Source: a virus (taxonomy: Duplodnaviria > Caudoviricetes). From it: a stretch of DNA of 32,002 nt. Where the stretch lies: IMG/VR virus record IMGVR_UViG_3300005805_000287, positions 1 through 32,002 of that record; one strand, given 5' to 3'. Of the stretch, positions 6,396 to 29,702 are shown in pieces; the first letter of the stretch is position 1; the number at the start of each line of letters is the position of its first letter. Both the position numbers and the translations under genes were made by a program. Below the pieces are notes generated by a model. It had not been told where the DNA came from. It worked only from the letters and a program-made list of their open reading frames with translations, and ran no database searches.

Positions 6396-6397
6396 CA

Positions 6398-6637: not shown

Positions 6638-6644
6638 TCAAAAG

Positions 6645-6698
6645 GGGTGACTAGAAAGCAGGGAAGTGCAAGCCTTCCCCACCCACAAGGCGAAAGCC
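6645..6698 (+). ncRNA. tRNA-elbow-like RNA element A
   Basis: GGGTG/CACCC stem stacked on GGGAAG-TGCAAGC-CTTCCC T-arm-like hairpin; ACTAG in linker; followed by ACAA and a GGC-GAAA-GCC tetraloop. Confidence 0.55.
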
Positions 6699-6735
6699 GA
6701 ATATCAAAACCAACAACAAAAAAGGAAAAGGAACA

Positions 6736-7149
6736 ATGGAAACCAAAACAGAAATCATCAATCCATCAGTCGGGGTGGATGTAACGAAACACATTGGAAG
6801 CGACGCATACCACGAAATCGTTGTGGCGACTGCCCGCAACTACCGCATCATCTACACCATGAGCGCACGAAGCGTTCTTGGCAATCTGACACTTGACACT
6901 TGGAAATCACTTCCAAATTCAATTCGTCGCAAGCACGCACGAAATGCTTGGTTGAATGCACTAAGCAATTTACGAACCGATACGGAAACCATGTACGACA
7001 ACGAAGAACAAATCAAATCAGTTGTTGATAGATGGAAAGCAGCCCATGCCTACACACTTCGCAAGGATGGCTACTACACCAGCAAAGGGCGCAATAGCGA
7101 TTATTTGAAAATAGACAGCACCTACCAATACCTTGACCCGAACTTTTAG
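6736..7149 (+). CDS. Hypothetical protein (137 aa), cassette 2
   Basis: A-rich leader AAAAGGAAAAGGAACA-ATG; ends YLDPNF. Confidence 0.8.
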   Translation: METKTEIINPSVGVDVTKHIGSDAYHEIVVATARNYRIIYTMSARSVLGNLTLDTWKSLPNSIRRKHARNAWLNALSNLRTDTETMYDNEEQIKSVVDRWKAAHAYTLRKDGYYTSKGRNSDYLKIDSTYQYLDPNF

Positions 7150-7158
7150 GTCATGGCG

Positions 7159-7208
7159 ACCCGCCCCTAGTGGGCAACGCGCAGGTGCAATCCCTGCGGC
7201 GGGTACAA
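7159..7208 (+). ncRNA. tRNA-elbow-like RNA element B
   Basis: ACCCGCC/GGCGGGT 7-bp stem plus GCAGG-TGCAATC-CCTGC T-arm (12-bp stack), CCCTAGTGGG in linker, 3' ACAA. Confidence 0.6.
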
Positions 7209-7258
7209 ACAAAACATCGGAACGCTAGTGTTGGCTTGACATAGGAAAGCGGTGTGCG

Positions 7259-7522
7259 ATGTTGGGCTACAAAGTGACCGTCACAGATGAAGTGACGCTA
7301 TTGATTGCGGCAGATGATACGAACCGCTACGCATATTTCAATATTGTCGGGAACAAGGTGCTTGCATTGGGCGGTGCGTCGGTCACTTTCGCTACGGGTT
7401 TGCAAGTCGCGAAGCACACCGCACCAATGGAAATCTTTGTTCCTTTGGGTGAAACGCTTTACGCTATTTGCGACACAGACGATAGTGATGATGTTCGCGT
7501 GCTGCTTCCGAATGTGGATTGA
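7259..7522 (+). CDS. Hypothetical protein, probable small virion beta-sandwich protein
   Basis: AGGAAAG upstream; beta-strand-rich; coupled to protease gene. Confidence 0.65.
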   Translation: MLGYKVTVTDEVTLLIAADDTNRYAYFNIVGNKVLALGGASVTFATGLQVAKHTAPMEIFVPLGETLYAICDTDDSDDVRVLLPNVD

Positions 7523-9357
7523 TGGCGATGCCTTACGGGATTTCAGAAAACCAACCTGATTGTTCGCGTTGGGCTGCGGTTGTGCAGCGTGAAGATGGTT
7601 CATTTGAAACGCTTGCTTGTTATGACACGAAACAGGAAGCGATTGACCGCATGGTTGCGCAATCGTTGGCGGAAGATTTAGAACCTATCGGTGAAGTTGG
7701 AACACGGGAACTTCCCGACAATTACCGACCAGCACTTACTGATGATGTGCCAGAAGGTAGGGCGTGCGGGAACTGCGTTTTTTATGATGAAACAAAAGTT
7801 GTTGGTGAAGGTGATGAACTTCGCGCCTACTGCGAAAAGTGGGATGAATATGTGAACGGCGGTTTCTATTGCAATGCTTGGCAACCGAAAGCCGAAATGG
7901 ATGACGATGATGATGAACCAGAAGAAGAAGGTGTTGCTGTTGAAGAAAGACAAATTAGTTTGATTGCCCCCGATTTCATGGCGGCTTCGGCGCGTCGCGG
8001 TTTGCGTTTGCATGAAGAAGGTTTTTCTGGTGATGGTCTAGTTCCTGCAACTGTTGCAGATGCGCGACGGATGGCGAACGGTCAAGCATTATCAGAAGCC
8101 AAGTGGCGGAAAATACCTGCGTGGATTGCCAGACACATCGGGGATTTGGATGCTGTGCAAGGTGACGAAATCACCGCTGGTTTGGTTGCAATGTTGTTGT
8201 GGGGTGGTGGCGCATCCAAGACTTCTGCACGCAGAACACAGGCTTACGCGCAACGCATCGTGGACACTTTGAATGCGGAAGAAGAAGAACGCGCTGATGC
8301 ACCAGCACCACCGAAAGACCAAATCACAGGTTCAGAAACAAACCCTGCTGGTTCTGCCGCAGACAAAACGGGTGACATCACACTTTCGGATGCAGTTGAA
8401 ACCAGCCTTCAAAAGAAGGCAGATGACCACAACAAACGAATGAACGAAGAAGATAAACCCGTGTGGACAAAGGTGCGGGTTGGGGCTTTGCGTTCGGTAT
8501 GGCGTAGGGGGGCTGGCGCATTTTCAACATCGCACCGACCCAACATGACACGCCAACAATGGGCAATGGCTCGCGTGAATGCGTTTCTATATCTTGCGGA
8601 AAAAGGCAAACCAGAAAATTCAAAGTATGTAACCGACAACGACTTGCTTCACCCCGAACATCCAAAGTATTCCGAAGCCGATAGAAATGCAATCCGCAAA
8701 GATGTAATCTGTTCAACATCTATGGCTGAACTACGCGAAGCAATTGCTGACCCAACCGAAGTTCGTTGGTGTGTGAAGAAGGCTGACGAAAAACGGTTTG
8801 TTGCTTTCACCAATTTGGAAGCACGCCAAGACGGTGAAGGAAACAAGTTGATTGGCTATGCATCAGTATTTGATAGCCCTTCTGAACCGATGCCCTTCGT
8901 TGAATATGTGCGCAGGGGTGCGTTCGCAAAGACGCTGAATGATGGTGCGGATGTTCGGTTGCTCATTGACCATGAAGGCGTGCCGCTTGCCCGCACCAAA
9001 TCTGGAACTTTGATGTTGGAAGAAGATGACAGGGGATTGCGTGTAGAAGCATCACTTGACCCCGCGAACCCCGATGCGGCGCGTGTCATTTCTGCAATGA
9101 AACGCGGTGACATTTCGCAGATGTCCTTTGCTTTCCGAACCATCAAAGACAGTTGGAATAGTGATAGGTCGGTGCGCGAATTGAAGGAAGTGCAACTTTA
9201 CGATGTGTCAGTTGTGACCTTCCCCGCGTATGAAGAAACGGTTGCAGAAATCCGTAGTGGACAAACCGCGCAGGAAGTCGCTACTATCGTGAACATCGCA
9301 TCCGTGCGTTTGCGTTCTGCGCAAATCGCATTGGCGCGTAGGCACAGCCGCGATTGA
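7522..9357 (+). CDS. Multidomain HK97-type prohead protease (long N-terminal extension)
   Basis: C-terminal GYASVFD, FVEYVRRGAF, LLIDH, QMSFAF, LYDVSVVTFPAY (S78 protease); about 430 aa of extra N-terminal domains; start could be 7522 or 7528. Confidence 0.9.
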   Translation: MAMPYGISENQPDCSRWAAVVQREDGSFETLACYDTKQEAIDRMVAQSLAEDLEPIGEVGTRELPDNYRPALTDDVPEGRACGNCVFYDETKVVGEGDELRAYCEKWDEYVNGGFYCNAWQPKAEMDDDDDEPEEEGVAVEERQISLIAPDFMAASARRGLRLHEEGFSGDGLVPATVADARRMANGQALSEAKWRKIPAWIARHIGDLDAVQGDEITAGLVAMLLWGGGASKTSARRTQAYAQRIVDTLNAEEEERADAPAPPKDQITGSETNPAGSAADKTGDITLSDAVETSLQKKADDHNKRMNEEDKPVWTKVRVGALRSVWRRGAGAFSTSHRPNMTRQQWAMARVNAFLYLAEKGKPENSKYVTDNDLLHPEHPKYSEADRNAIRKDVICSTSMAELREAIADPTEVRWCVKKADEKRFVAFTNLEARQDGEGNKLIGYASVFDSPSEPMPFVEYVRRGAFAKTLNDGADVRLLIDHEGVPLARTKSGTLMLEEDDRGLRVEASLDPANPDAARVISAMKRGDISQMSFAFRTIKDSWNSDRSVRELKEVQLYDVSVVTFPAYEETVAEIRSGQTAQEVATIVNIASVRLRSAQIALARRHSRD

Positions 9358-9433
9358 GCCGCGCTACATTCAGCGCACTTTGTTATCGCACTAGGCGACA
9401 ACATCCCAACTATTCCCCAAAGGAAACCATCCC

Positions 9434-10738
9434 ATGAAAGACAAACTGATTGAAAAGCGTGACGCAGTTCTTGCCCGCGCCGAAGCCATTGTTGCTGCTG
9501 CCAAGACGGAAGCACGCGATTTGACCGCTGATGAAGATGCGGAAATTGCCAAGTCGCTTGACGAAGTTCGCGATTTTGATGCACAGATTGAGCGTCACGC
9601 AGAACTTGAAAAGCGTTCAAAGGAAGCCGCTGACCTGCGAGCAAAGAACCAGATTGCAGAAGTCACCAGCAAAGTGACTAGCGAGCCACGCACCTACCGT
9701 TCCAACGGTCAGCATTCATTCATTTCGGATGCATATGCTGCACAATTCAACGGTGACTTCGCAGCCCGCGAGCGTCTCGCCCGCCACATGAACGAAGAAA
9801 AGATTGAACGACGCGATGTGACCAGCGCAAACTTTGCTGGTCTTGTTGTGCCACAATTCTTGACCGACCTTGCAGCACCGTTCGCCCGTGCTGGTCGCCC
9901 ATTCATGGATGCTTCACGCAAGCATCAACTGCCAGATGCAGGCTTGACGCTGAGCATCAGCAAAGTCACCACAGGTTCAGCAACCGCTGTTCAAACCGAA
10001 GGTGCAGCAGTTCAGGAAACCAACATGGATGACACCAAACTTGATGTTTCGGTTGTCACCGTTGCTGGACAACAGAATGTTTCGCGTCAGGCTTTGGAAC
10101 GCGGTACGGGAATTGACAGCCTTGTTATGGCTGACCTTGTTTCCGCTTACCACACGAACCTTGATAGTTTGAATGTGACGACATCAGCAACTTCGCTGAC
10201 GAACACAATCACGCAAGTCGTGACCTACACCGATGCATCGCCAACGGTGGCTGAACTGTATCCGAAACTTTTGGATGCCATTCAGCGTGTGCAAACCAAC
10301 TACTTCCAAACCCCGAACTTTATTCTGATGCACCCGCGTCGTTTGGCGTTCATCTTGGCTGCCGTTGATAGCACGAACCGCCCATTGGCTGTTCCAACAC
10401 CATACGGTTTCAACCCGATTGCAACAGGTAACGGTGCTGCACAGTACGCGCAAAGCGGCTATGCGATTGCAGGAATTCCTGTCATCAGCGACGCGAATGT
10501 AATCACCACGAATGGTGCAGGCTCAAACGAAGATGTCATCATTGTTGGTCACACTTCGGAAAGCCACCTGTGGGAACAGGGCGACGGTTCACCAATGATG
10601 CTTCGCTTTGAAGATGTCAAGTCGGCTGAACTTGAAGTGAAGATGGTTGTGTACGGATATTCCGCATACACTGCCAACCGTTACCCGAACGCATTTGCGC
10701 TGGTCGGTGGAACGGGATTGGTTGCACCAACCTTCTAA
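9434..10738 (+). CDS. Major capsid protein, HK97 fold with N-terminal delta domain
   Basis: Coiled-coil N-terminus (RDLTADE), GLVVPQ, VSRQALE, ILMHPR, GIPVISD; follows protease; AAGGAA RBS. Confidence 0.92.
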   Translation: MKDKLIEKRDAVLARAEAIVAAAKTEARDLTADEDAEIAKSLDEVRDFDAQIERHAELEKRSKEAADLRAKNQIAEVTSKVTSEPRTYRSNGQHSFISDAYAAQFNGDFAARERLARHMNEEKIERRDVTSANFAGLVVPQFLTDLAAPFARAGRPFMDASRKHQLPDAGLTLSISKVTTGSATAVQTEGAAVQETNMDDTKLDVSVVTVAGQQNVSRQALERGTGIDSLVMADLVSAYHTNLDSLNVTTSATSLTNTITQVVTYTDASPTVAELYPKLLDAIQRVQTNYFQTPNFILMHPRRLAFILAAVDSTNRPLAVPTPYGFNPIATGNGAAQYAQSGYAIAGIPVISDANVITTNGAGSNEDVIIVGHTSESHLWEQGDGSPMMLRFEDVKSAELEVKMVVYGYSAYTANRYPNAFALVGGTGLVAPTF

Positions 10739-10750
10739 TTGCGTTTCTGA

Positions 10751-10787
10751 TTTTGGTGGGGGCGGCGAATAACCGCCCCCGCCAGAA
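10751..10787 (+). terminator. 15-bp hairpin after capsid gene
   Basis: TTTTGGTGGGGGCGG / CCGCCCCCGCCAGAA with 7-nt loop; no downstream U-tract. Confidence 0.6.
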
Positions 10788-10802
10788 GTAGGATGATGCG
10801 TT

Positions 10803-11009
10803 ATGAAACAAAACAAATGGGTTGCGGGCTTGCTCGCTGAACGCGAAGCGTATGTGCGTCGTGGTTTGCGTGACAAGGTGCGCATGGTTGATGAAGCACT
10901 TGCCGCTTTGGGTCATCGTGCTGATGATGTGGTGGTGGAAACTGCTGCCGTTGATGTAGATGTTGAGCAAGCGAAAGTGGTTCGTGGGCGTAAGCGGAAG
11001 AAGGCTTAG
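10803..11009 (+). CDS. Hypothetical protein (68 aa)
   Basis: Helical N-terminus, basic tail; between capsid and connector. Confidence 0.7.
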   Translation: MKQNKWVAGLLAEREAYVRRGLRDKVRMVDEALAALGHRADDVVVETAAVDVDVEQAKVVRGRKRKKA

Positions 11010-11011
11010 CG

Positions 11012-11608
11012 ATGGCGATAGCGAATGGTTACTGCACGCTGAATGAAGTGAAAGCCGCGCTTCGCATTAGTGACAACACGGATGACACCCTGCTTGAAAA
11101 ATCCATTGAAGGTGCATCGCGCCGCATTGATGGTTACTGCGGGCGCAGGTTCTATCAGCAGACAGCAACCATTCCGCTTTATGCGGTGGACAGTTACACA
11201 TTGCCAACGCAAGAAGATTTGGTTTCTGTTACGACTTTGAAAACCGATGACAATGGCGATGGCAGTTTTGAAACGACTTGGACAACGGGTGTTGATTATC
11301 AACTTGAACCGCTTGACAGGGGGATTACAGGTCAGCCGATACGCACGGTGACAGCGATAGGTGGCAAAACCTTTCCATTGTTTAGCGTGCCAGCGTTACC
11401 TTCTGCACAGATTGTGGGCGTGTGGGGTTGGTCTGCCATCCCGAATGATGTGCGTGAAGCGTGTGTGCTTCTGGCGATGCGCGGGTTTGCGCGTTACAAC
11501 GCAGCACTTGGCGTTGTCGGTTTTGCTGACATGGCTATTCAGGTGCGTGCAATTGACCCTGATGTGCGCGACTTTCTGAACCCCTACCGCAAGTTCGGGA
11601 TTGCCTGA
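11012..11608 (+). CDS. Head-tail connector/adaptor (gp6/gp15-like)
   Basis: YCTLNEVKAAL, DDTLL, ASRRIDGYCGRRF, GWSAIPNDVREAC. Confidence 0.85.
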   Translation: MAIANGYCTLNEVKAALRISDNTDDTLLEKSIEGASRRIDGYCGRRFYQQTATIPLYAVDSYTLPTQEDLVSVTTLKTDDNGDGSFETTWTTGVDYQLEPLDRGITGQPIRTVTAIGGKTFPLFSVPALPSAQIVGVWGWSAIPNDVREACVLLAMRGFARYNAALGVVGFADMAIQVRAIDPDVRDFLNPYRKFGIA

Positions 11609-12015
11609 TGGCGGCGACACCTTCGGAAGTGATGACAGGTTTGAAGAACCGTTTGGCAACGATTACAGGGTTGCGCACTTTTAGTTATCAGCCTTCTTCG
11701 CTGAACCCGCCTGTCGGGTTTCCTGTTATCAATCGCGTGGAATATCACGGCGCGATGGGCGGCGGTTTGGTCATTTACGATTGCACCGTGTATGTGATTG
11801 TCGGGCGTTATACCGATGACAGGGCTTTTGATTTGGCTGATGATTTCCTTGCTTATTCTGGAACAAAGTCAATTCGTGCAGCGATTGAAGGCGATGAAAC
11901 TTTGGGTGGCAAAACGCAATCTTTGACGGTTGCTAGTGCGGCAAACATTTCTTCGGTGAATGTGGCTGACCAAGATTTTCTTCAAGTCGCTTTACAAGTC
12001 ACGGTGAATGGGTAA
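11608..12015 (+). CDS. Putative tail terminator/completion protein
   Basis: Position, size, SIRAAIEGDETLGG motif. Confidence 0.65.
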   Translation: MAATPSEVMTGLKNRLATITGLRTFSYQPSSLNPPVGFPVINRVEYHGAMGGGLVIYDCTVYVIVGRYTDDRAFDLADDFLAYSGTKSIRAAIEGDETLGGKTQSLTVASAANISSVNVADQDFLQVALQVTVNG

Positions 12016-12025
12016 GATGGTGGGC

Positions 12026-12196
12026 ATGGCACAGTTCAAAGTTGTTTCAAATCGTTTGGTTGGTCACACACAGGGTTCACTTGTGAGCGAAGCAGAACTT
12101 GACGGTGCTAATATTGCCGCGTTGATTGAAGCAGGTCATATTGCTGAAATCGGTAGCAAGCCTTCCAAATCCAAAGATACGAAAGAACAGGAATAA
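12026..12196 (+). CDS. Small hypothetical protein before tail tube
   Basis: MAQFKVVS..NIAALIEAGHI; start could be 12008, 12017 or 12026. Confidence 0.65.
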   Translation: MAQFKVVSNRLVGHTQGSLVSEAELDGANIAALIEAGHIAEIGSKPSKSKDTKEQE

Positions 12197-12198
12197 CT

Positions 12199-12606
12199 AT
12201 GGCAATCATTGCTTTCAAAAATGTTGATTTCACCGTGAATGGTGTGAACCTAAGTGACCGCATGAACGCGGCAACCCTGACATACGAAATTGAACAGCAG
12301 GATGCAACCGTGATGGGCGGCAACCGCGCATTCGTCGGTGGCATTCAGAACAACACTTTGGAAGTGACGCTGTATCAAGATTTTGCAGCAAACGAAGTTG
12401 AAGCCACAATTTTCCCATTGGTGGGAACAACTACCACCGTGACACTTCGCGCAGGCGCACAAGCAACCGCAGCAGATAATCCACTCTATACCATTACGGG
12501 GGCGTTCCTTTCTTCACATACACCGATTGCGGCAAGCGATGTTGGTGCAACTTCACCAATAACGCTGAGTTTCACGGGCGGAACTTTGGTCAAGACGACA
12601 TCTTGA
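12199..12606 (+). CDS. Major tail (tube) protein
   Basis: VNGVNLSD, FVGG, YQDFAA, NPLYT; upstream of chaperone and tape measure. Confidence 0.75.
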   Translation: MAIIAFKNVDFTVNGVNLSDRMNAATLTYEIEQQDATVMGGNRAFVGGIQNNTLEVTLYQDFAANEVEATIFPLVGTTTTVTLRAGAQATAADNPLYTITGAFLSSHTPIAASDVGATSPITLSFTGGTLVKTTS

Positions 12607-12639
12607 TTTATTCGTATTCACAACTAGAAGGGGATTGCA

Positions 12640-12915
12640 ATGCAAATTGATTTGCGTGTTTTGTTTATCAACGGTCAAACCGCTGATGTTGATGCGGTGT
12701 TTGCTGACTTCATTGCGTTTGAAAAGGAACGCAGGCGCAGCGTTGTTCGTCTGGATGCCGATATGCAATTGACAGATTTGGCTTGGTTGGCGTGGCACGC
12801 TGAAAAGCGTTTGGGGAAAACGGCTTTGAAGTTTGAACCCGATTGGGTTTCTACTGTGAAAAGCGTGGAAGTTCGTGCGAATGATGACGGTGCTGCCCCT
12901 TTGGACAGCAAGTAA
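12640..12915 (+). CDS. Tail assembly chaperone (G-like)
   Basis: DFIAFEK, DLAWLAW; slippery heptamer near 3' end. Confidence 0.75.
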   Translation: MQIDLRVLFINGQTADVDAVFADFIAFEKERRRSVVRLDADMQLTDLAWLAWHAEKRLGKTALKFEPDWVSTVKSVEVRANDDGAAPLDSK

Positions 12916-13067
12916 GCGATAGGAATTCTGCGCATTGGCAGATTGCCGCGCTTGCTTGCGAAACAGGAATTGCACCACAGCATTTGATTGATGCTGGTGA
13001 TTTGATGATTGATGCGATGTTTGATTATTTGAAGCATCGTGCAGAAAAGCAAAGACAACGAAAGTAG
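12897..13067 (+). CDS. -1 frameshift extension of tail assembly chaperone (GT-like)
   Basis: C CCT TTG heptamer 12897-12903; -1 frame open to TAG 13065-13067 encoding ..HWQIAALACETGIAPQHL.. Confidence 0.7.
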   Translation, partial: PFGQQVSDRNSAHWQIAALACETGIAPQHLIDAGDLMIDAMFDYLKHRAEKQRQRK

Positions 13068-13082
13068 TACGATGGGCGCACT

Positions 13083-13661
13083 ATGGCTGAAAACTTCAAC
13101 CCATCAAAGCGAAACTTTTTTCAACATGATGTGCGCGTTGATGTTACGGGCTTGAAGGAAACCCTTGCCGAACTGCGCCAATACGACAAGGAACTTTATA
13201 AGAAGGTCGCAGACCAATTGAAGGGCATTGCAACACCTTTGGCAGCGGAAGTTGGGCGTTCATTCCCTATGGTTTCCCCGTTGCAACGCTGGCACATTGA
13301 AGGCGAGCGTCGCGGCAAGTCGCGAATGCCACCGTACAATCCTTCTACTGCGGCGCGTGGTGTGAAGCCAATCGTGTATTCGGGCAATCGCTTCATTGGA
13401 AAGAATGTGGGCATTCTGCGTTTGCAACAAATGGATGCGGGTGGTCAAGTGTTTGATGGTGCTGGTTCGCAATCGCCGCGTGCGGGGATGGTGCAGAACC
13501 TTGACAAGTATCGCGCAACGAAATCGGCTGGTGGCGGTTTCCGTTCGCGTGTCATGTACGGCGCGACGAAGCGCGGGTTGCCGCTGATTGAAGATGCCAT
13601 CAATAAAGCAATTGAAGATTTGAATACGATAGTTGTTGCACGGATTGTAAGCGGGTACTGA
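13083..13661 (+). CDS. Putative tail completion/neck protein (HK97 gp10-like)
   Basis: VDVTGLKETLAELRQ N-terminus; basic; tail module position. Confidence 0.55.
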   Translation: MAENFNPSKRNFFQHDVRVDVTGLKETLAELRQYDKELYKKVADQLKGIATPLAAEVGRSFPMVSPLQRWHIEGERRGKSRMPPYNPSTAARGVKPIVYSGNRFIGKNVGILRLQQMDAGGQVFDGAGSQSPRAGMVQNLDKYRATKSAGGGFRSRVMYGATKRGLPLIEDAINKAIEDLNTIVVARIVSGY

Positions 13662-13662
13662 T

Positions 13663-16344: not shown

Positions 16345-16346
16345 TC

Positions 16347-17612: not shown

Positions 17613-17655
17613 TGGCTATGCTTGCGGGCTGATAACAAAAAGGCAGGTGTGAAAA

Positions 17656-17934: not shown

Positions 17935-17943
17935 GATTGACAC

Positions 17944-18306: not shown

Positions 18307-18313
18307 GTGAGCA

Positions 18314-19105: not shown

Positions 19106-19107
19106 TC

Positions 19108-19648: not shown

Positions 19649-19651
19649 GAC

Positions 19652-20430: not shown

Positions 20431-20644
20431 AATTGAGCAAACGAACCGCAACAAGAAACGGGTTCTGCAAGATATAGCCGATGCGTTGGATGATGATGAC
20501 CGCAAGGATTTCATTGTTGCGTTGAATGACAAGACGGTTTCCGCACAAGCGTTGTCGCTGGTTTTGAAGCGTCGCGGTTTCGTGGTTTCTAATTCGCTAA
20601 TCACTTTGTATAGGCGTGGGGGGTTGGCTTATGAAGTTCGCTGA
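20399..20644 (+). CDS. Hypothetical small helical (HTH-like) protein
   Basis: VSAQALSLVLKRRGFVVS..I..YRRG; overlaps phosphoesterase start; start uncertain (20396/20399). Confidence 0.6.
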   Translation: MGLLETEVRNEIEQTNRNKKRVLQDIADALDDDDRKDFIVALNDKTVSAQALSLVLKRRGFVVSNSLITLYRRGGLAYEVR

Positions 20645-21686: not shown

Positions 21687-21757
21687 TGTTGTGTCAATGC
21701 AAGTTGCGTCGGTGGATTGTTACCTGCGAAGGTGCGGATGATGACGACGACGAATGA
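21686..21757 (+). CDS. Possible 23-aa Cys/acidic micro-protein
   Basis: MLCQCKLRRWIVTCEGADDDDDE; TGATG coupling to upstream gene, fills gap to next gene. Confidence 0.4.
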   Translation: MLCQCKLRRWIVTCEGADDDDDE

Positions 21758-21995
21758 GCATTCACGGGTTCTAGTTGTTTGGCATGATGCGCACGCAATC
21801 AATGAAGGTGGTTGGTGTGAAGAAACTGACATTGATGATGAACCTTGTGTGGTGGAAAGTCTTGGCTGGTTGTTGGCTGATAGAAAGCGCGGTCATGTTG
21901 TGTTGGCGCAGTCAATAACGAACGATGGGAATTTGGATAGCGTGTTGGCTATTCCTGTGGGCATGGTTCAGAAAGTGGTTGTGTTAGGTTTTTGA
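21741..21995 (+). CDS. Conserved-looking phage hypothetical protein
   Basis: VVWHDA..W..C..SLGWL..VLAQS..IPVGMV pattern; ATG 21738/21741. Confidence 0.7.
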   Translation: MTTTNEHSRVLVVWHDAHAINEGGWCEETDIDDEPCVVESLGWLLADRKRGHVVLAQSITNDGNLDSVLAIPVGMVQKVVVLGF

Positions 21996-22032
21996 TTGCG
22001 CGTTGTTCCCCCCTTCGGCTTCGCGTCGGGTG

Positions 22033-22079
22033 CGGGTGTTGCACGCAGGTTTTGTTGCGTGCGCACCCGTTTCCTGTTT
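22033..22079 (+). terminator. Intrinsic terminator at end of late/lysis block
   Basis: CGGGTGT-T-GCACGCA / TGCGTGC-GCACCCG hairpin followed by TTTCCTGTTT. Confidence 0.6.
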
Positions 22080-22187
22080 GTGTCACAACTTATTTTTTGT
22101 AAATTTTTTGGGCGCGTGGATATTGGGGTTGGCGAAAAGATTTTTGGGGATTGCTTGTTTTGTGGGTGTTTTGGGGGTCTTTTGGAT

Positions 22188-22230
22188 TTGCGTGTTTGGT
22201 GTCATCCGATATACTGAACCCATCGGGATA
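22188..22230 (+). promoter_or_regulatory. Conserved promoter copy P3
   Basis: TTGCGT 22188-22193, 16-nt spacer, TATACT 22210-22215, CATCGGGATA 22221-22230; leader nearly identical to P1. Confidence 0.75.
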
Positions 22231-22258
22231 AAGGAACACCGATGGAAAAGGGAACAAC

Positions 22259-22645
22259 ATGAAAAACGAAATCAGCAATCTGACAAAAGGTGAAACCGTT
22301 TATTGGAAGCGGATGCCGCAAGGCGTATTCACCTTCTTGACAATTGACAGCGATGGTTCATTGCACATCGTCGGCGGTGAACGCGGTTATGCACGCAACG
22401 GACACAACGCACTTCCAGAAGATGTGTCGCTGCTTCCGTTTGATGGCGGCAAGGAAGCGGTCATCGCATGGTGCAGGAACAACATCTTCGCGGAAGTCAC
22501 CGTGAAGGAACTTGCTGCGATTGGCGAATGTTCAGAAGCAACCGTGCGTGCGCTCATCAATGACAGGCGCGACATCTTCCGAAAGTCGGAAGGTCGCAAG
22601 TACGAAGTGCGTGACCCGAAAGCCGACAGACAAAACGAAAAGTAA
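22259..22645 (+). CDS. Hypothetical protein with C-terminal winged-helix-like region
   Basis: EVTVKELAAIGECSEATVRALI..FRK..GRKYEV; first gene after P3. Confidence 0.7.
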   Translation: MKNEISNLTKGETVYWKRMPQGVFTFLTIDSDGSLHIVGGERGYARNGHNALPEDVSLLPFDGGKEAVIAWCRNNIFAEVTVKELAAIGECSEATVRALINDRRDIFRKSEGRKYEVRDPKADRQNEK

Positions 22646-22676
22646 TCAACAACAAACATCATTGGAAGGAACAACG

Positions 22677-23423
22677 ATGGCAACGAAACAAGCAAGATGG
22701 AAATGCCCGAAGTGCGATGACGGTGTTCTTGCACCGACACGCCCGCGAAAGGATGATGTGCGGCGGTACTGTCTGCCGTGTTCATCCGTGAACGGAAGAT
22801 TGGTGGAACGGATTGCACCTGCGTTGGAAGCGAAGCGCGAACAGCGCATTGCAAGCACCCGCGAGAAGGTGCGCCAGAAGCGTCAGGTTGCGCGTAGGCG
22901 CGAGCAACCGAAGAAGTTGCAGCAAAGGTGCGACGCAGTTCGCGAACGCATCATTCGCAAGGAAGCCGAACGCATCTGGAACTTGATGGCGGATTGGCAC
23001 AAAGGCAAACCGCTTCCGCGTATCAACATCGTTCGCGGCAGGAATTGGGGAAGCCAATATGGTCACGCGGAAGTTTGGCGCAACACAATTCAAGTGAATG
23101 TGGATGCTGAACAATCACAACTACGAAGTCGGCGTGTGTGGGCTGTGCTTGCGCATGAACTAGCGCACATCGCTTGCCCGCCAATCAGCAGGCGTGGCAA
23201 AACAGATGACACGCATCACCGCGTGTTCTATTACTGCTTGCGTCATGTTTGGGAAAAGCGATGGAAGTGCGCAATCTCATTTGGCGAAGTACGAACTTGG
23301 GGATACAGCGTGGATTACATCATTGAAGGTCAAGCCAGCAAGCACATCACCTTCACGCTTCCGAACCCCGTAACACCCCCAAAGCAAAATGAAACCATCA
23401 ACAACAACGAAGGGAACAACTAA
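22677..23423 (+). CDS. Zinc-ribbon plus SprT-like zincin metalloprotease
   Basis: CPKC..CLPC, basic coiled coil, VLAHELAH..THHRVF; start re-assigned to ATG 22677 after GGAAGGAAC. Confidence 0.75.
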   Translation: MATKQARWKCPKCDDGVLAPTRPRKDDVRRYCLPCSSVNGRLVERIAPALEAKREQRIASTREKVRQKRQVARRREQPKKLQQRCDAVRERIIRKEAERIWNLMADWHKGKPLPRINIVRGRNWGSQYGHAEVWRNTIQVNVDAEQSQLRSRRVWAVLAHELAHIACPPISRRGKTDDTHHRVFYYCLRHVWEKRWKCAISFGEVRTWGYSVDYIIEGQASKHITFTLPNPVTPPKQNETINNNEGNN

Positions 23424-24367
23424 TGCAACTAGTTACGAAAGCACAAGACCGAACCGAATGGTTGGCGCAACGCAAACGCACACCCGAAGGTTTGGTTTCA
23501 TTCGGCGGAAGCGACGCACCGATATTGATGGGGGCTTCACAGTTCCGCACACGCGGCGATTTGTTCGTTGAGAAAGCAACGATGGTCGTTGATGAACAAC
23601 CAGCGACAAGTGCAATGACCACAGGCAACTATGCCGAACCGATGCTGCTGCAATTTGCATCAGACAAACTTGGAACGAAGTTCATCACCCCGCCAACCTT
23701 GTATCGTGATGGTCAATGGCTTATCACCGCAGATGGTGTGGATAATGAAACCGCACCCGCAGTTTGTGTGGAATGCAAAACCACATCGCGTTATGCCATT
23801 CGCGATATTGAAGATGTGCCGCCAATGTATCTATGGCAGATGTGGTCACAGCAAATGGTTCTAGGTTGCCCCGTGTTTTTGTCGGTGCTTGACCGCGATT
23901 TGAAACTGTCGCTGATTGAATGCCCGACGAACACGGATGCGTTCAGCGCGTTGCGCTTGGAAGCGGAAGTGTTCGGTGAATGGGTGCTTCGTGGTGAACC
24001 GATGCCTGATGACATTGACAACTTTTCCGCTGAACAAATTTCGTCGTTGTTCAAGGTGCAAGCAAAGCAAGTTGAAATCGGTGCTGATGCGTTGGTATGG
24101 ATTGAAGCATTGAACGACGCACGGAAGATGGGTGCTGATGCGGATGCACTTGAAAAGAATGCCAAAGACCATCTTGCACGAATGCTGCTAGATGCAGAAG
24201 TTGGAACGGTCAATGGTGAAGTTGCTGTCACTTGGAAGCAACAGAAAGGTCGCGCAACAGTTGATGTTGCACGAATGCGGTCAAGTCATCCTGACTTGGT
24301 TGCACAGTATGAAAAAGAAGGTTCACCATTCAGGGTGTTCCGCACAACGAAGGGAAAAAAGAAATGA
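23423..24367 (+). CDS. YqaJ-like (lambda exonuclease family) recombination exonuclease
   Basis: EWLAQRK, GGSDAPILMG, GNYAEP, TADG, VECKT, Y.WQ..Q. Confidence 0.88.
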   Translation: MQLVTKAQDRTEWLAQRKRTPEGLVSFGGSDAPILMGASQFRTRGDLFVEKATMVVDEQPATSAMTTGNYAEPMLLQFASDKLGTKFITPPTLYRDGQWLITADGVDNETAPAVCVECKTTSRYAIRDIEDVPPMYLWQMWSQQMVLGCPVFLSVLDRDLKLSLIECPTNTDAFSALRLEAEVFGEWVLRGEPMPDDIDNFSAEQISSLFKVQAKQVEIGADALVWIEALNDARKMGADADALEKNAKDHLARMLLDAEVGTVNGEVAVTWKQQKGRATVDVARMRSSHPDLVAQYEKEGSPFRVFRTTKGKKK

Positions 24368-25032
24368 CATTTGAACTTGACGGATATCTAACCGTTGCTC
24401 AACGGATAGAACAATTGAAAGCGAAGTATCCAGAAGCGGTGCTTCGCCCATTCAATCCAGCAGAACCATTCACCATCAAAGAAATTGGTGGCAAGGAATT
24501 CATTGTGTATGTGGCGGCGTGCTACAAGACACCGAATGACCCGATGCCAGCAGTTGCGGTGGCGATTGAACCGTGCGTGCCGAAATCAAATTTCACCCGC
24601 GACAGTATGGTAATGAACGCTGAAACTTCGGCTTGGGGGCGTTGCATCATGGCTGCGCTTGCTTGCGATACATCGGGCAAGGTTGCTTCCGCTGATGAAG
24701 TGCGCAACCGTCAGCAAGGTGAACAGATTGCGACGGTCATCAAAGCATTCCCAACTGCGAAGGCACAGCAAGTGACAACATCTGCACCGCAAGCAAAAGG
24801 AAATGGGTTCATCACACAGAAGCAGATTGGGTTGCTTGGCAAACTGACACGCGAACGCAACATGAACAACAATGACCTTCTTGCGTATGTTGCCGATTTG
24901 ATTGGTCGCGATGTTGGCGGCAAGTTGGGCGAACTGACCAGCAAAGAAGCGTCTGATGTGATTAGCGCATTGATGAACGGTGAACAACCGACAGCACGCA
25001 AAGCCGCACCAGCAGATGAAGAACCCTTTTGA
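24364..25032 (+). CDS. Single-strand annealing protein (Sak/Rad52-like), partner of exonuclease
   Basis: YLTVAQRI..KYP, NAETSAWGRC, ASADEV; C-terminal TQKQI..LTSKEASDVI; ends EEPF. Confidence 0.7.
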   Translation: MTFELDGYLTVAQRIEQLKAKYPEAVLRPFNPAEPFTIKEIGGKEFIVYVAACYKTPNDPMPAVAVAIEPCVPKSNFTRDSMVMNAETSAWGRCIMAALACDTSGKVASADEVRNRQQGEQIATVIKAFPTAKAQQVTTSAPQAKGNGFITQKQIGLLGKLTRERNMNNNDLLAYVADLIGRDVGGKLGELTSKEASDVISALMNGEQPTARKAAPADEEPF

Positions 25033-25334
25033 TGGGCGTGCAAGCGTGGCGCGACGAAGCGCGATGTGTTGGAACAGCAACAGAAGTTTTCTTTCCAGAA
25101 GTATTGAAGGAAAACAGATTTGATGCAGCCATAAAACTTTGCAGCAAGTGTTCGGTATCGGAACAATGCTTGAAGTTGGTTATCTGGTTGGATGATGTTG
25201 ATGACAAGTGGGGCGTGTTCGGTGGTTTGACACCGCGACAGCGGCGGCTTGTTAGATACGAAATGGAACGCGGCAAATCGCTGACGGATGCTGTGAAGGT
25301 GGTGAACGATGTCGGGCGACCCAAGAAAGGGTGA
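25032..25334 (+). CDS. whiB: WhiB-family transcription regulator
   Basis: W..EARC..FFP..CxxCxxxxxC..GVFGGLT..R. Confidence 0.9.
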   Translation: MGVQAWRDEARCVGTATEVFFPEVLKENRFDAAIKLCSKCSVSEQCLKLVIWLDDVDDKWGVFGGLTPRQRRLVRYEMERGKSLTDAVKVVNDVGRPKKG

Positions 25335-25803
25335 ATGCGAAGGCAGACAAGACAACTGCAAGGTTGATGGATGCCCGCTGTTCGGTGGGCTTGGCAAACC
25401 TGCGCGTGATGGTAAGCGTCGCATCAAAGGATGCGGTGACGCTGTTGCGCGTGGGCGACGCTCACGAAGGAAAGGATTGAAGAAGCAGCGTGACGCACGC
25501 AAAGCGTTGGGTGTTGCCCCATCACACAAGTTTGGTGACGCGAACGAAGAACGCTGGAACGACCCAATCTTTGCCAACGAAGTCAAATCAGGAAAACAAA
25601 TTCAGCCTGCGGTGACAGCGTGGTTGCGGATAGAAAAACAGGTGCGTTCCAATGAAGCGGATTTTGGTTCACTTCGGAAACCTTGTCGCGCTGTGTTGAT
25701 GCCCGATGATTGGGGAAGCGAAGGTTTGGTGATGGTTCGTTTGTCGGTGTGGCGTGATTATGTTGCGCCCGCGCTCGCGGAATATTATGGACAAGGCGAA
25801 TGA
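25309..25803 (+). CDS. Hypothetical protein, Cys-rich N-terminus, possible PD-(D/E)XK resolvase-like
   Basis: Four Cys in N-terminus, basic helix, NEVKSG; nuclease call tentative. Confidence 0.55.
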   Translation: MSGDPRKGECEGRQDNCKVDGCPLFGGLGKPARDGKRRIKGCGDAVARGRRSRRKGLKKQRDARKALGVAPSHKFGDANEERWNDPIFANEVKSGKQIQPAVTAWLRIEKQVRSNEADFGSLRKPCRAVLMPDDWGSEGLVMVRLSVWRDYVAPALAEYYGQGE

Positions 25804-26309
25804 TTTACACATTGACAGACACAGAAATTGCAGCAGCGCATCAATGGGTCGCAGACAAACTTCGCATCAAAGATACGCACGATATTCGCGATAAGAAATT
25901 TGACCGCAACAACAGTTCACAGGGGGTTTCTTTGATTGGCATAATGGGTGAAATTGCTGGTTGTCATGCTTTGAATACGCAACCAAACTTGAAGGTGATG
26001 ATTGGTGGGGATGACGGAACGGATTGTGAAGCGTTTGGTTTGTATTGGCAAATCAAAACATCTTCGCTTCGTGCGCTCATCTTCAATTCGGAAGCAGATT
26101 TTGTGGCTGATGCCGCGTTGCTTGTTCGTCATGTGGCTGACAAACATTCCGTTGCAGACAATCCGACCTTTGAAATCATTGGTGGTGTCTCGCGCAAACG
26201 GTTCATGCGTCAGCACTTCCAACATGACTACGGCTATGGGTTGCGTCTGGTGATGAATGCAGATGATTTGACCCCGCTGGATACTTTGCTTTCGGTGGTG
26301 CGCAAATGA
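25800..26309 (+). CDS. Putative PD-(D/E)XK-fold nuclease
   Basis: GIMGEIA..DDGTD..QIKT pattern. Confidence 0.55.
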
Positions 26310-27106
26310 TTGTTCGTGGCGCACGAAAGACAACGAACTTCACCATCATCGGGAACGATGTGCTGCGAGATAAGCGGCTTTCCTATCGGGCGCGTGGGCT
26401 GCTTGCTTGCGTGTTGTCGCGACCTGATGATTGGCGAACATCGGCTGACAGCCTTGCGCGTGAAGGTTCAGAAGGTCGGGCTGCGATATTGACCGCTTTG
26501 AAGGAATTGGAAACCGCAGGCTATTTGATACGCACACGCATTCAGGATAAGCAAGGGCATTGGCGCACCATCTCAACCGTCTATGACGAACCACAGACAG
26601 GATGCGCAACCGAAGTTCAGTTTCCGAATGTCGGTTCACCGAACTTCGGTTTCCGCACTTCAATAGAAGAACTAGATACGAAGAAACTAGATATTGCGCC
26701 AGAAGCATTTGAAAACTTTTGGATGGCATATCCGCGCAAGATAGCCAAACGCGATGCACAGAAAGCATGGCAGCAAGTCATGCGTGCAGCAGATGCACCA
26801 ACGGTGGAAACAATCATGCAAGCGGTTGAGCAATACAAGACCGCACAGAAGGACAAAAACTACATTGCATATCCCGCAACTTGGCTTCGTGCTGGCAGAT
26901 GGGCAGACGAACTTGAAACCAAGTACGATGAAGGTACGGATGGGGAACGGAAAGTGTCACCGAATGTGGCACAAGCACAATCATTTGCGGCAGCGTATTT
27001 TCACACCCGTCGCAGTTTGGATGAATTGAAATCAGACATCGCGCATCGTGATAGCGAATATCAGGAAGCGGCGTTGCTTTGGTTTCAACAGATGAAAGCA
27101 GGATGA
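26306..27106 (+). CDS. Phage replication initiator (replisome organiser-type)
   Basis: [30 protein letters not shown]; [25 protein letters not shown]. Confidence 0.85.
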
Positions 27107-27633
27107 CCATGAAGTTCCTAGCGGGAATGGTTTTGGCTGGTTTGGTTTCGGTTGGGTTTGCAGTAGGTGCGTCGTCTAAGGCGGTTGCACCGATTGTTGT
27201 TGCTGCACCGATTGTTGAAACGACGACGACAACAACGACAACGGTTGTTCCGCTGGTGGTTGATGCTGACGCGAAGTGTGGGCAATGGTGGTCTGTTGCT
27301 GTTGCGTCTGGTTGGGATGAAATTGATTTGCGTGATTTGGATGAAGTGTTGTTTCGTGAAAGTCGTTGTGATGCGTCACAGGTGAATGCGAGCGACCCGA
27401 ACACGGTGGATGGTGTGAAGGGTTCTGTTGGGTTGGCTCAAATCAATGTGTTTTGGGTGCAGCCGACTAAGTGGTATCCGAAGGGATACTTGCAGACGCA
27501 CACCATCGTTTCGGGTGCGCATGATTTGTTTGACCCGTTCTTGAATTTGCGGGCGGCGAAGGCGGTGTTTGACTATGACCGAAGCGAAGGAAGGTGTGGT
27601 TGGTCGGCGTGGGCTTGGAAAGGCTGCGATTGA
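27103..27633 (+). CDS. Signal-peptide-bearing lytic transglycosylase (SLT/lysozyme-like)
   Basis: Signal-like N-terminus, poly-Thr linker, RESRC (catalytic Glu), GLAQIN, LFDP..N..AA, GWSAW. Confidence 0.8.
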
Positions 27634-27665
27634 TGTCTGTGGCGCGTTCTAATGCGGGCTGCAAT

Positions 27666-27698
27666 GGGTGGGGTGCAGATACCACCCCCACCCTTTTT
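27666..27698 (+). terminator. Intrinsic terminator
   Basis: GGGTGGGGTG / CACCCCCACCC hairpin then TTTTT. Confidence 0.7.
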
Positions 27699-27790
27699 GA
27701 ACGCTCTACGGGCTTCCTATTGCGTGCTTTTTCTGGAAACCGCATGGAATAAGGGTTTTGCAAGAAATTTGGGAAATCTGGCTGAATGAC

Positions 27791-27835
27791 TTGCAATCAG
27801 GTGGATGACGGGCTTATGCTGAACCCATCGGGATA
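27791..27835 (+). promoter_or_regulatory. Conserved promoter copy P4
   Basis: TTGCAA 27791-27796, 18-nt spacer, TATGCT 27815-27820, CATCGGGATA 27826-27835. Confidence 0.78.
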
Positions 27836-27850
27836 ACGAAGGGAACAGAC

Positions 27851-28300
27851 ATGAAAAACAAATTCAAGGGTCAATGCCACACTTGCAAAACATTCGTTGC
27901 CGCAGGTGAAGGCGAATACGAAGGTGGATACACCTTCTGTTCAGAATTCATTGGCACAAGCGATGCGCCACAATCATTGCGCGACACATTCAATGCATGG
28001 GGCTTCTCATGCATCAACGAATTGAACCGCAAAGCAGCAACATCATTTGCAAATCGTTTTGAAGTTCGCGCCGCGCGCCGCGCCGAAGAACAGGAAAGCG
28101 CACCAACTGCCGAAGAAATTGCCGCCAACAAAGCCGCAAGCGACCTTGCCAACAAGCAAGCCCGCGCTGCACGCCGCGCCGAACTTCAAGAATTGAAAAA
28201 AGCGAACATCTGCCCCCGATGCATGGGCGAAGGCGGTTCTGATGCATGGCGGGCGACAGGCTGGACTTGCAACCGTTGTCACGGAACGGGCAAGTTCTAG
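27851..28300 (+). CDS. Zinc-finger protein with DnaJ-type CxxCxGxG repeats
   Basis: N-terminal CHTC; C-terminal CPRCMGEG and CNRCHGTG. Confidence 0.75.
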   Translation: MKNKFKGQCHTCKTFVAAGEGEYEGGYTFCSEFIGTSDAPQSLRDTFNAWGFSCINELNRKAATSFANRFEVRAARRAEEQESAPTAEEIAANKAASDLANKQARAARRAELQELKKANICPRCMGEGGSDAWRATGWTCNRCHGTGKF

Positions 28301-28309
28301 AACCGATAG

Positions 28310-28352
28310 TTGCAATACATCAATCAACCGATATACTGAATACATCAGGATA
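28310..28352 (+). promoter_or_regulatory. Conserved promoter copy P5
   Basis: TTGCAA 28310-28315, 16-nt spacer, TATACT 28332-28337, CATCAGGATA 28343-28352. Confidence 0.78.
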
Positions 28353-28387
28353 GAAAACAACCAACAACAAAAAAGGAAAAAGGAACA

Positions 28388-29008
28388 ATGAAAAAAGCAG
28401 ACATCATCAAAGCAACAAGCAAGTTTGACACTTGCGCAATTTTTGAAGTTGCGCGAGGCGACAGCACTTGGAAGCGATATGCCCGATTGCTGACCGACGA
28501 AGAAAAAAATGCAATGACCGAAGGCAGGAATTCCTACCGATACAGCCGAACAGCACCATCAGTAATCATTGTGTATGTGAATGCAATTCACGCCAACGGG
28601 GAAAAATCTTCTTCGCCAAGCGCATACGCCGAAGATATGGTCACAGATTTTGTGGATGCACAAAACCATTATGGTCGCACCGATGCAGAAAGCGTGCCAC
28701 TTGCCCGCATCAAGCGATGCGTCAATGAGACACAATCGTTTGTGGATTTCTGGAACGCAGAAATCGTTGCGAAGAAAGATTTGGCAAAGCGTCAAAAGGA
28801 TGCCGATGAGCGAGCAAGGCAAGCCAACATCAATCACACAAACCGCATCCGCAACCTGAATGACCGCATCAATGAACTTGGCTTTGAAGAACGGGTAGGC
28901 AGCACATACAGTTCATACAAGCGTGAAGTGACCATCAGCGTTGAAACGCTCACCGAACTTGTGCGCCTAGCCGAACAAGCCAAGATGACCGACAAGGTAG
29001 GTGCGTGA
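28388..29008 (+). CDS. Hypothetical protein (206 aa), C-terminal coiled coil
   Basis: Follows P5 and A-rich leader. Confidence 0.78.
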   Translation: MKKADIIKATSKFDTCAIFEVARGDSTWKRYARLLTDEEKNAMTEGRNSYRYSRTAPSVIIVYVNAIHANGEKSSSPSAYAEDMVTDFVDAQNHYGRTDAESVPLARIKRCVNETQSFVDFWNAEIVAKKDLAKRQKDADERARQANINHTNRIRNLNDRINELGFEERVGSTYSSYKREVTISVETLTELVRLAEQAKMTDKVGA

Positions 29009-29010
29009 AT

Positions 29011-29181
29011 ATGGCAAAGGAACGGATACCAACCAACATTGAAATCGCAAGACGCAACGCAATTCTGTCGGCGGTGGATAAAATCGTTACGCACGAACTT
29101 GGCAATCATTGGACATTGGAAGCGCACATGGCACGCAAAGCCGCACTTCTGGAAATCATCAACAACAACGAAGGGGAATAA
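29011..29181 (+). CDS. Hypothetical protein (56 aa), not in ORF track
   Basis: MAKERIPTNIEIARRNAILSAVDKIVTHELGNHWTLEAHMARKAALLEIINNNEGE; fills the gap with 2-nt spacers on each side. Confidence 0.65.
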   Translation: MAKERIPTNIEIARRNAILSAVDKIVTHELGNHWTLEAHMARKAALLEIINNNEGE

Positions 29182-29183
29182 CA

Positions 29184-29390
29184 ATGGCAATCCTTATCAG
29201 CAACGACATCCGTATCATCTGCGACAAATGCGGCGCAGAACATCACAGCGACCATCAAACCGTTGGCGCAGCGCGACGCGAAGCAATGGAATTGGGATGG
29301 GGCAACAGCCGCAACCAAGACATCTGCACCAAGTGCCGACTACGCAAACCGAAAGGTTGGACAGATGAACGATGGGAACAAATCAAATGA
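29184..29390 (+). CDS. Small zinc-ribbon protein
   Basis: CDKC..GW..D.CTKC; AAGGGGA RBS. Confidence 0.7.
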   Translation: MAILISNDIRIICDKCGAEHHSDHQTVGAARREAMELGWGNSRNQDICTKCRLRKPKGWTDERWEQIK

Positions 29391-29590
29391 AGTTCACCAT
29401 CTTGGTCGCAGCAATGTTCGCAACAGCAATCCTTGCACCGAACAGCGAAAAGACCATTGGCGATGATTGGGCAATACACCCATTCAGCATCGCCATCACA
29501 ACGCTAATCATCATGGGCTGCTGGATACTTTCGGAAACCAATACACCCCCTAGATACAATCGCCGCAAAGGAAAGGAACACAAAAACTGA
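29387..29590 (+). CDS. Small membrane protein
   Basis: Two hydrophobic segments, basic tail; ATGA overlap. Confidence 0.6.
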   Translation: MKFTILVAAMFATAILAPNSEKTIGDDWAIHPFSIAITTLIIMGCWILSETNTPPRYNRRKGKEHKN

Positions 29591-29684
29591 TGAATGAATG
29601 TGTGGTGGCAAGCGCAAGCGAAAGCGCGTTAGTTCCTTCCCCGCGCCGCTTCGCCCGTGCAATTCGGGCGCACCACATCATTCA
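29591..29684 (+). ncRNA. tRNA-elbow-like RNA element C
   Basis: TGTGGTG/CACCACA stem stacked on CGCCCG-TGCAATT-CGGGCG; inner AAGCG/CGCTT and GCGCG/CGCGC stems with TTAG loop; outer TGAATGA/TCATTCA. Confidence 0.6.
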
Positions 29685-29702
29685 GAACGAAAGGCGATTT
29701 CA

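Follow-up and report, generated by a model that had tools for sequence, protein, structure and literature searches.

Here, we describe a family of 40-nucleotide (nt) transfer RNA (tRNA) mimics that have no anticodon and lie in the gene cassettes of actinophages. Element A of the virus record IMGVR_UViG_3300005805_000287, a complete 32-kb record whose 32,002 nt are the stretch of DNA analysed here (the window), belongs to this family, and two further elements of the window share its architecture: B, a related short subtype, and C, a separate long class. The family is real, widespread and apparently unnamed, and the structural evidence for it is unusually clean. We propose that A and B are sites at which host nucleases would punctuate the early messages of the phage, a function to which we give a probability of about 0.6 on the strength of the sequence patterns set out below.

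A sequence-only reading of the window had described three elements with different stems and a common fold, in which an acceptor-like stem runs into a T-arm-like hairpin. This description held: the coordinates, folds, loops and stacks agree (Table 1), and a descriptor written after A, B and C had been seen matches these three alone, all on the coding strand, with three matches in only 1 of 200 dinucleotide shuffles (2 of 200 under a looser loop). The folding energy of the bare elements is not significant (z of -1.5 to -1.65; -2.9 for C with flanks). The same reading took the three for one family, and here the shared architecture stands and a single tight family does not, since the A-class model scores B at 13.1 bits (expectation value, E, of 0.23) and picks up only the T arm in C. 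A stack of 7+5 base pairs (bp) can be drawn for B alone, A having 5+6 and C 7+6. ACAA directly follows both A and B; these two have no anticodon arm with a 7-nt loop, and C has a 13-nt pyrimidine loop instead. In A, the elbow positions 18, 19, 55 and 56 correspond to A6653, G6654, G6668 and C6669, and two extra pairs, G6658-C6673 and C6659-G6672, probably form.

Relatives of A were pulled from IMG/VR and metagenomes by the tail 3' of A. About 85% of the matches to the bare tail pattern were unrelated to the elements, 80 capsid-gene loci yielded one true copy, and a scan of the genome collection gave mostly chance matches and real tRNA genes. A pattern with a fixed acceptor, in which positions 18 and 55 were free and all four combinations allowed, matched at least 129 loci. 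The loci collected contain 73 distinct A-class cores, 72 of them with at least five of the six T-stem pairs, and these 72 divide into 19 with A18/G55 and 53 with G18/U55, none being mixed, as expected of the compensated A18/G55 elbow that had been suggested from the window. A geometry-only descriptor, run on 505 sequences (2.54 Mb) from loci fetched for holding the element, gave 166 distinct matches against 1, 1 and 1 in three shuffles, 75 of them with other acceptor sequences. A connector filter dropped 3, and the remaining 163 copies comprise 139 with G18/U55, 23 with A18/G55 and one G/C. Because both states occur within single phages (L384, L385, L402 and Lika), the distribution tends to argue against a single inherited switch of the elbow. 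Acceptor sequences, too, differ freely among the copies within one phage. G19-C56 is invariant in the class, G19 being partly imposed by the filter.

Two contacts unknown in tRNA, neither imposed by the search, vary in a compensated manner in the 163 copies: the connector pair 7-13 (C-G in 115, G-C in 22 and A-U in 19) and connector position 14 with T-loop position 60 (A-U in 94, G-C in 50, C-G in 8 and U-A in 3). The pairs 7-13, 14-29 and 9-24, again not imposed, rank within the top 11 by corrected mutual information. In 73 non-redundant copies, 98.7% of cells are paired (31-47% in slid controls), two-sided changes are seen at 12 of 15 pairs, and covariation reaches 0.742 against 0.170 in shuffles, of which the share due to the stems is partly by construction, as the stems belonged to the search pattern. 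The homologues thus covary as the sequence-only reading would have it, and its claim of tRNA acceptor/T-arm mimicry is supported. T stems contain 24 G-U against 5 A-C combinations, and this G-U excess suggests that the element acts as RNA of the sense strand. One subtype (L216, L267, L282, L330 and L338) has a GUCRYA loop in place of the T loop and retains position, acceptor and tail.

Deposited phages gave 149 matching records by blastn, of which 127 matched over at least 80% of the query; these are mainly phages of Streptomyces (113) and Mycobacterium (17). The A model finds seven strong copies and one weak copy in the right-arm gaps of Lika, five in Send513 and seven in Cuke, all three being cultured phages, and, within the stretches fetched, one each in Rockstar and Lupine; it has no match in phiC31 22,000-41,491. 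Five IMG/VR records hold 7-15 matches each, clustered and co-oriented. With only 42 candidates scored per genome, so that the counts carry no information on absence, the model gave one match among 151 Actinomycetota genomes and three among 151 genomes of the class Acidimicrobiia. Two A-like folds were seen in genomes of the latter class, one directly behind a promoter-like site (L507:1501-1545, genome G099) and one in an apparent integrated element (L508, G248). Distinct B-type copies number five, and two more short subtypes have 4 and 33 pattern matches, at least one of which is doubtful; B and the other short subtypes occupy the same kind of position as the A class, often with the same tail. 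A hybrid junction (L003:6215-6300) joins the tail hairpin of one element to the 3' half of B, which suggests deletion or recombination between elements. A sequencing-run search with a Streptomyces phage stretch listed no RNA-holding run.

The position of the copies is equally regular. The element starts 6-8 nt after a stop codon in 73 of the 163 copies, in 144 the stem is followed by a hairpin at a distance of no more than 4 nt (485 of 815 in shuffles), and the next start codon mostly lies 30-59 nt beyond the element with its own strong ribosome-binding site. A hairpin of the GGC-GAAA-GCC type, as found behind A, also stands 3' of B-type and other subtypes in relatives. The minus strand of L420:4001-5440 carries an array of seven A-class copies embedded in GGCAW-like pentamer repeats; five of these copies follow one another at intervals of about 100-140 nt, and no convincing gene lies between them. 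In L101, L119, L124 and L139, ACAA and a GNRA hairpin directly follow promoter-like sites without a tRNA-like element, possibly as a 5' stabiliser.

What might cut such an element? The base after the stem is a purine in 160 of the 163 copies and is followed by C in 158; the next two bases are free, with ACCA in only 8, and G1-C72 is present in 155. The N-C ending is shared by all three window elements and by 18 of the 19 copies of the long class described below. In a reference set of 105 distinct tRNA genes from three actinobacterial genomes (10 ARAGORN calls having been dropped), C74 is present in all 105, including the 71 without an encoded CCA. Streptomyces coelicolor, which has homologues of tRNase Z and ribonuclease (RNase) E, is described as cutting CCA-encoding tRNAs between the Cs (Romero et al. 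2014, PMC4681348), and by our own count 43 of the 44 tRNA 3' entries in Table S4 of that paper include a cut directly after C, a position that we read as C74. The elbow is reported to be read by both RNase P and RNase Z (PMC4810234). Because the N-C 3' signature is common to the elements and to host tRNA genes, host tRNA-maturation nucleases most likely cut the A-class elements, and processing by host RNases, one of several functions proposed from the window, becomes the leading one. The D loop GG(C/T)AGAC is confined, among the 105 host genes, to tRNA-Leu (10 of 105), and it is this tRNA whose D loop and T loop are matched by the connector and T loop of the A class; tRNA-Leu of Actinobacteria is the likely ancestor of the class, which differs from it in having no D stem, anticodon arm or variable arm and in its 5-bp acceptor and 6-bp T stem.

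In the mechanism that we propose, A and B would imitate three parts of a tRNA (acceptor stem, T arm and elbow) within gaps of a predicted early message. We infer that they are transcribed with that message and cut there by host tRNA-maturation nucleases, most likely directly after the conserved C behind the stem, which in A predicts a cut after 6686. Such a 3' cut, made by tRNase Z or its counterpart in actinobacteria, would cap the upstream message with the tRNA-like fold, the message downstream would begin with a hairpin 2-4 nt from its 5' end, and each gene would become a separately stabilised messenger RNA (mRNA). Protection of both products would fit the arrangement, since the element lies 6-8 nt after the stop codon and is followed by the hairpin and a ribosome-binding site. 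RNase P may also cut at G1 and free a piece of about 42 nt, which is less certain; we rank the 3' cut above the 5' cut because the stack has 11 bp and position N-1 avoids both U and pairing with the discriminator.

An analogue with published in vivo data is found in mycobacteriophages L5 and D29. On the minus strand of L5, an element with an 11-bp acceptor/T stack and a longer interior spans 51,226-51,135 and is followed by A-C (C at 51,133; L620:8134-8227); D29 has the same element at 48,084-47,979 (L624), and 90 deposited records match it. The element coincides roughly with the 3' end of the Pleft RNA of L5, given as about 51,140-51,190 for an RNA described as very abundant and stable, with no terminator evident (Dedrick et al. 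2017, PMC5712189). That paper reports that L5 RNA levels drop by more than 90% beyond this end, and that deletions 51,195-51,619 and 51,195-51,407 could not be purified and 51,407-51,619 could (PMC5712189); by our coordinates, the unpurifiable deletions take out the 5' strand of the element. Two passages on tRNA in PMC5712189 concern real tRNAs. Because the A model scores only its T arm, we regard the L5 element as an in vivo analogue that supports the architecture and not as a scored member of the family. The D29 63-64 intergenic RNA, which was also examined, has no acceptor/T element. A second short acceptor/T-arm element lies in the L5 89-88 gap at 50,472-50,425 (L620:7426-7473, minus strand).

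Several observations weigh against nuclease punctuation as we picture it. Position N-1 is U in 5 of the 163 copies against 24 of the 105 host tRNA genes, and pairs with the discriminator in 8 of 163 against 26 of 105, neither of which suits a canonical RNase P site, nor does the 11-bp stack of A, one below that of tRNA. The excess of downstream-hairpin energy is modest (154 of 163 copies against 655 of 815 shuffles), element A of the window has C-A in place of the 7-13 pair, and one D-type subgroup has no canonical T loop. In L5, the drop of more than 90% means that stabilisation is seen upstream and not downstream, and the A model reaches only 13.8 bits (E 0.29) on the T arm of the L5 element.

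Other functions must be set beside nuclease punctuation. A released micro-tRNA could divert defence toxins, sensors or tRNA enzymes that bind an elbow or acceptor; released decoys of tRNA-targeting defences had also been suggested for the window elements. The five closely spaced L420 copies without convincing genes, the Acidimicrobiia fold directly behind a promoter-like site (L507) and loops that match the only tRNA type with GG(C/T)AGAC would suit such a role, but most copies are single, stand at gene junctions at a fixed distance from the stop codon and are not strong stand-alone genes; their acceptors vary within a phage, unlike those of a mimic of one tRNA identity, and they offer no anticodon to anticodon nucleases. 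As a decoy would require the same processing, it would add to punctuation more than replace it, and we keep it as an improbable, minority reading. Slightly less probable still is that the elements stay uncut and serve as compact roadblocks, or as knots bound by proteins, at which exonucleases such as PNPase and RNase J stall in the early message. The covarying pairs 14-29 and 15-28 would make a knot tighter than the tRNA elbow, the stack has 11 bp and the L5 analogue stands at a stable 3' end; a roadblock, however, has no need of an unpaired N-C matching host tRNA genes or of the tRNA-type G19-C56 face.

The stop-to-element distance, with its sharp peak at 6-8 nt, raises the question of whether the elements act on the ribosome or on RNA polymerase, by translational coupling after termination or by antitermination, since a terminating ribosome extends to about 6-8 nt past the stop. 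This spacing is explained equally well if the element must fold clear of the ribosome, the next start is mostly 30-59 nt on with a strong ribosome-binding site of its own, and copies also close cassettes (B) or form gene-free arrays (L420). Put-type antiterminators occur once near a promoter, but the elements repeat at many junctions, and the antitermination signal put forward in the sequence-only reading finds little support; we think either action quite unlikely. Least credible to us, at very long odds, is that these are DNA sites (cassette-recombination hairpins or operators) that merely resemble RNA. Their repetition between variable genes, the L003 hybrid junction and the likeness of the loop TGCAAT to the -35 box of this phage could be read in that way, yet three long-range covarying contacts, the sense-strand G-U excess and the tRNA loop consensus are those of an RNA, most relatives have TTCRA loops unlike the -35 box, and no integrase is present among the 39 window proteins scanned.

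Element C needs a separate account, as grouping it with A and B had overlooked that it forms its own class, whose loop is predicted to pair with ribosome-binding sites of the same phage. In 14 of 14 homologous loci fetched via the downstream protein, a C-like cloverleaf lies directly 5' of the gene for 51 amino acids; including pattern scans, the long class has 19 distinct copies, all with a UGCAA T loop (which two later patterns imposed). The YTAG that had been placed in the connecting loop of all three elements does not hold for C, where TTAG (29629-29632) lies in the central arm and is replaced by TTCG in the nearest five relatives; the D-loop equivalent of C is more likely a mini-hairpin, GC-AAGC-GC, at 29608-29615.

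Perfect matches of at least 8 nt between the loop arm and pooled start regions are commonest within the arm's own clade in each of three clades: 0.051 against 0.022 and 0.014 in the other clades for clade 1, 0.196 against 0.050 and 0.016 for clade 2, and 0.106 against 0.013 and 0.059 for clade 3. The first gene after an early promoter is frequently the best target, and in each of the three clades the loop matches the start of a SprT-like gene, over 9 nt in the window, 11 in L297/L298 and L303, and 8 in L306. A plain mimic of the 16S anti-Shine-Dalgarno sequence was considered and rejected, the host 16S tail giving 0 of 151, 0 of 46 and 6 of 191 matches of at least 8 nt. With the same chassis as A and B and an extra arm, C would be excised as an RNA of about 79 nt whose loop may pair with early ribosome-binding sites of the phage and turn early translation down; that C is such an antisense RNA seems to us an even bet. 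Against it, the complementarity is clear in clades 2 and 3 and weak in the clade of the window, probes of clades 2 and 1 match clade-1 starts at practically the same rate (0.050 against 0.051), and only three clades were compared. In the window, 0 of the 12 best duplex sites fall at predicted starts against 4-7 of 12 in five relatives, and support for an antisense role is weakest in this genome. Pairing in cis with the adjacent upstream ribosome-binding site remains a live alternative because, in clades 1 and 2, such a site and an ATG adjoin C upstream. In the window (29570-29823), the ribosome-binding site and ATG lie 10 nt 5' of C and open a 77-codon frame that continues across C into the next gene, which it overlaps in another frame; a similar frame exists in L298, L299, L302, L303 and L324, a different one in L297 and none in clade 3.

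How do the elements compare with known RNAs? ARAGORN found nothing in the window, and Rfam searches with E-value thresholds over the window and 20 related loci gave no family at cut-off except one true tRNA, in agreement with the sequence-only reading, which could not assign the window elements to a known family; ARAGORN called one A-class copy, taken with upstream sequence, tRNA-Arg (L452). The family fails membership in tRNA, transfer-messenger RNA (tmRNA), mascRNA, YrlA and C4. No tag-coding module and no ARAGORN or Rfam detection speaks for tmRNA. The mascRNA/menRNA family (RF01684), small anticodon-less tRNA mimics released from a longer transcript by tRNA enzymes, supplies the nearest Rfam model for one copy; the best phage score is 26.5 bits (the Rockstar copy) against a cut-off of 42.5, the window has no match, and these RNAs are longer and belong to vertebrate long non-coding RNAs. 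YrlA RNAs of actinobacteria and mycobacteriophages are described as having D and T arms and an acceptor stem, and that of M. smegmatis as being cut by RNase P and gaining CCA, in a permuted arrangement with a Ro60-binding module in Ro60-encoding genomes (Chen et al. 2014, PMC4201824). The Y RNA models of Rfam match neither the window elements nor related loci, and no Ro60 family was found among the 39 window proteins scanned, structural and tail genes being mostly outside that scan. A self-cleaving ribozyme, suggested by the UGCAA loop and GAAA hairpin, was rejected, with no Rfam match and no core arrangement seen; twister-sister and hammerhead were the motifs compared.

By analogy, A and B would work like plant mitochondrial t-elements and C like C4 and CI. 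The C4 (P1/P7) and CI (P4) RNAs are short, lie within a phage operon, are processed by a host tRNA enzyme and are antisense to the phage's own messages; C likewise lies in a phage operon, is predicted to be processed by such an enzyme and has a loop with predicted complementarity to messages of its phage. M3, CI and C4 are stated to have no T-loop equivalent (PMC5499578), and C has a full T arm, several early ribosome-binding sites as predicted targets and no Rfam match. Because C4 has no T-loop equivalent (PMC5499578), P1 C4, cited as a precedent in the sequence-only reading, is a poor one structurally; no repressor or integrase that would give a C4-like immunity context was found. Like A and B, the t-elements are tRNA-like folds that do not decode; they have a conserved T arm, lie where mRNAs begin or end and have been proposed to guide RNase Z and RNase P. 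They are described as organellar and irregular, with a length close to that of tRNA (74 nt in cox1) and with ends that have been mapped (Forner et al. 2007, PMC1920247). In contrast, the members of the phage family, known from sequence, are a uniform 40 nt, occur in bacterial phages with up to about 15 per genome, and have an 11-bp stack, the alternative A18/G55 elbow and new pairs to T-loop positions 59-60. We found no description of the family in Rfam or in the literature searched, from which subscription papers were mostly absent. An unnamed earlier listing among the 10,006 candidates of Fremin et al. 2023 (PMC10690425) is possible; the motif could correspond to DNAVirus_1369 (42 nt, Streptomyces host) or to another entry.

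The window codes for terminase, portal, protease and capsid, and also for a RecE-like exonuclease, a replication initiator and a WhiB factor, from which an actinobacterial host is likely. Gene 566-1207 has matches to the thumb and palm of DNA polymerase beta (family X). Small genes of no known family are grouped in cassettes, each headed by a repeated promoter-like site, similar copies of which lie near 37, 22200, 27790 and 28310. The cassette at 6150-7250 is of early type and sits within the head-gene module, with B closing it before the head genes; its gene content varies among L001, L003, L005 and L006.

Table 1. Positions in the window of the three elements and of associated features.
Feature	Position	Strand	Remarks
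Predicted early promoter, TTGCAA-18-TATACT	6150..6179	+	Three-gene cassette with A and B; consensus match only
First cassette gene	6228..6395	+	No family match
Second cassette gene	6398..6637	+	79 amino acids; no family match; stop codon 7 nt 5' of A
Element A, fold	6645-6684	+	5+6 = 11 bp; T loop TGCAAGC; A6685 discriminator-like and C6686 C74-like, giving element 6645..6686
Element A, stems	6645-6649/6680-6684; 6661-6666/6674-6679	+	Acceptor-like stem; T stem
Element A, loops	6650-6660; 6667-6673	+	Connector; T loop
GGC-GAAA-GCC hairpin 3' of A	6689..6698	+	2 nt from the predicted new 5' end downstream
Ribosome-binding site of third cassette gene	6724..6734	+	
Third cassette gene	6736..7149	+	137 amino acids; no family match; stop codon 9 nt 5' of B
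Element B	7159-7204	+	Then A7205 and C7206; 7+5 = 12 bp; loop TGCAATC (7186-7192); mini D hairpin with loop TAGT
Ribosome-binding site of gene starting at 22677	22664..22672	+	Weak SprT-like match; best predicted C-loop target among starts, 9 nt perfect
Predicted early promoter	28310..28337	+	Cassette ending in C
Ribosome-binding-like GGAAAGGAAC and ATG	29570..29592	+	Directly 5' of C; partly complementary to the C loop
Element C	29601-29677	+	Then T29678 and C29679; 7+6 = 13 bp; loop TGCAATT; 7-bp acceptor-like stem, mini D hairpin 29608-29615, central arm with 13-nt pyrimidine loop 29629-29641, T arm 29652-29670
Conserved gene 3' of C	29703..29858	+	51 amino acids; no known family

Taken at its widest, and only tentatively, the family may reflect a reduction of tRNA-Leu by actinophages to a micro-tRNA of 40 nt whose elbow has been rewired and which serves as general punctuation for host tRNA nucleases. 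The same chassis may have been reused for an RNA against ribosome-binding sites (class C), which would shut early translation, and, in L5 and D29, for the 3' end of Pleft RNA, which is abundant and apparently essential. If host-nuclease punctuation is correct, tRNA punctuation, known from organelles and a few eukaryotic RNAs, would extend to bacteriophage early expression. T7 has RNase III sites in its early message, and the elements would be the actinobacterial counterpart; they would also explain the terminator-less 3' end of the most abundant RNA of L5. With its compensated elbow and two new tertiary pairs, the 40-nt fold is a minimal tRNA mimic that occurs in nature; it would help to define the features that tRNase Z and RNase P measure, and it may provide a portable processing part for Streptomyces and mycobacteria.

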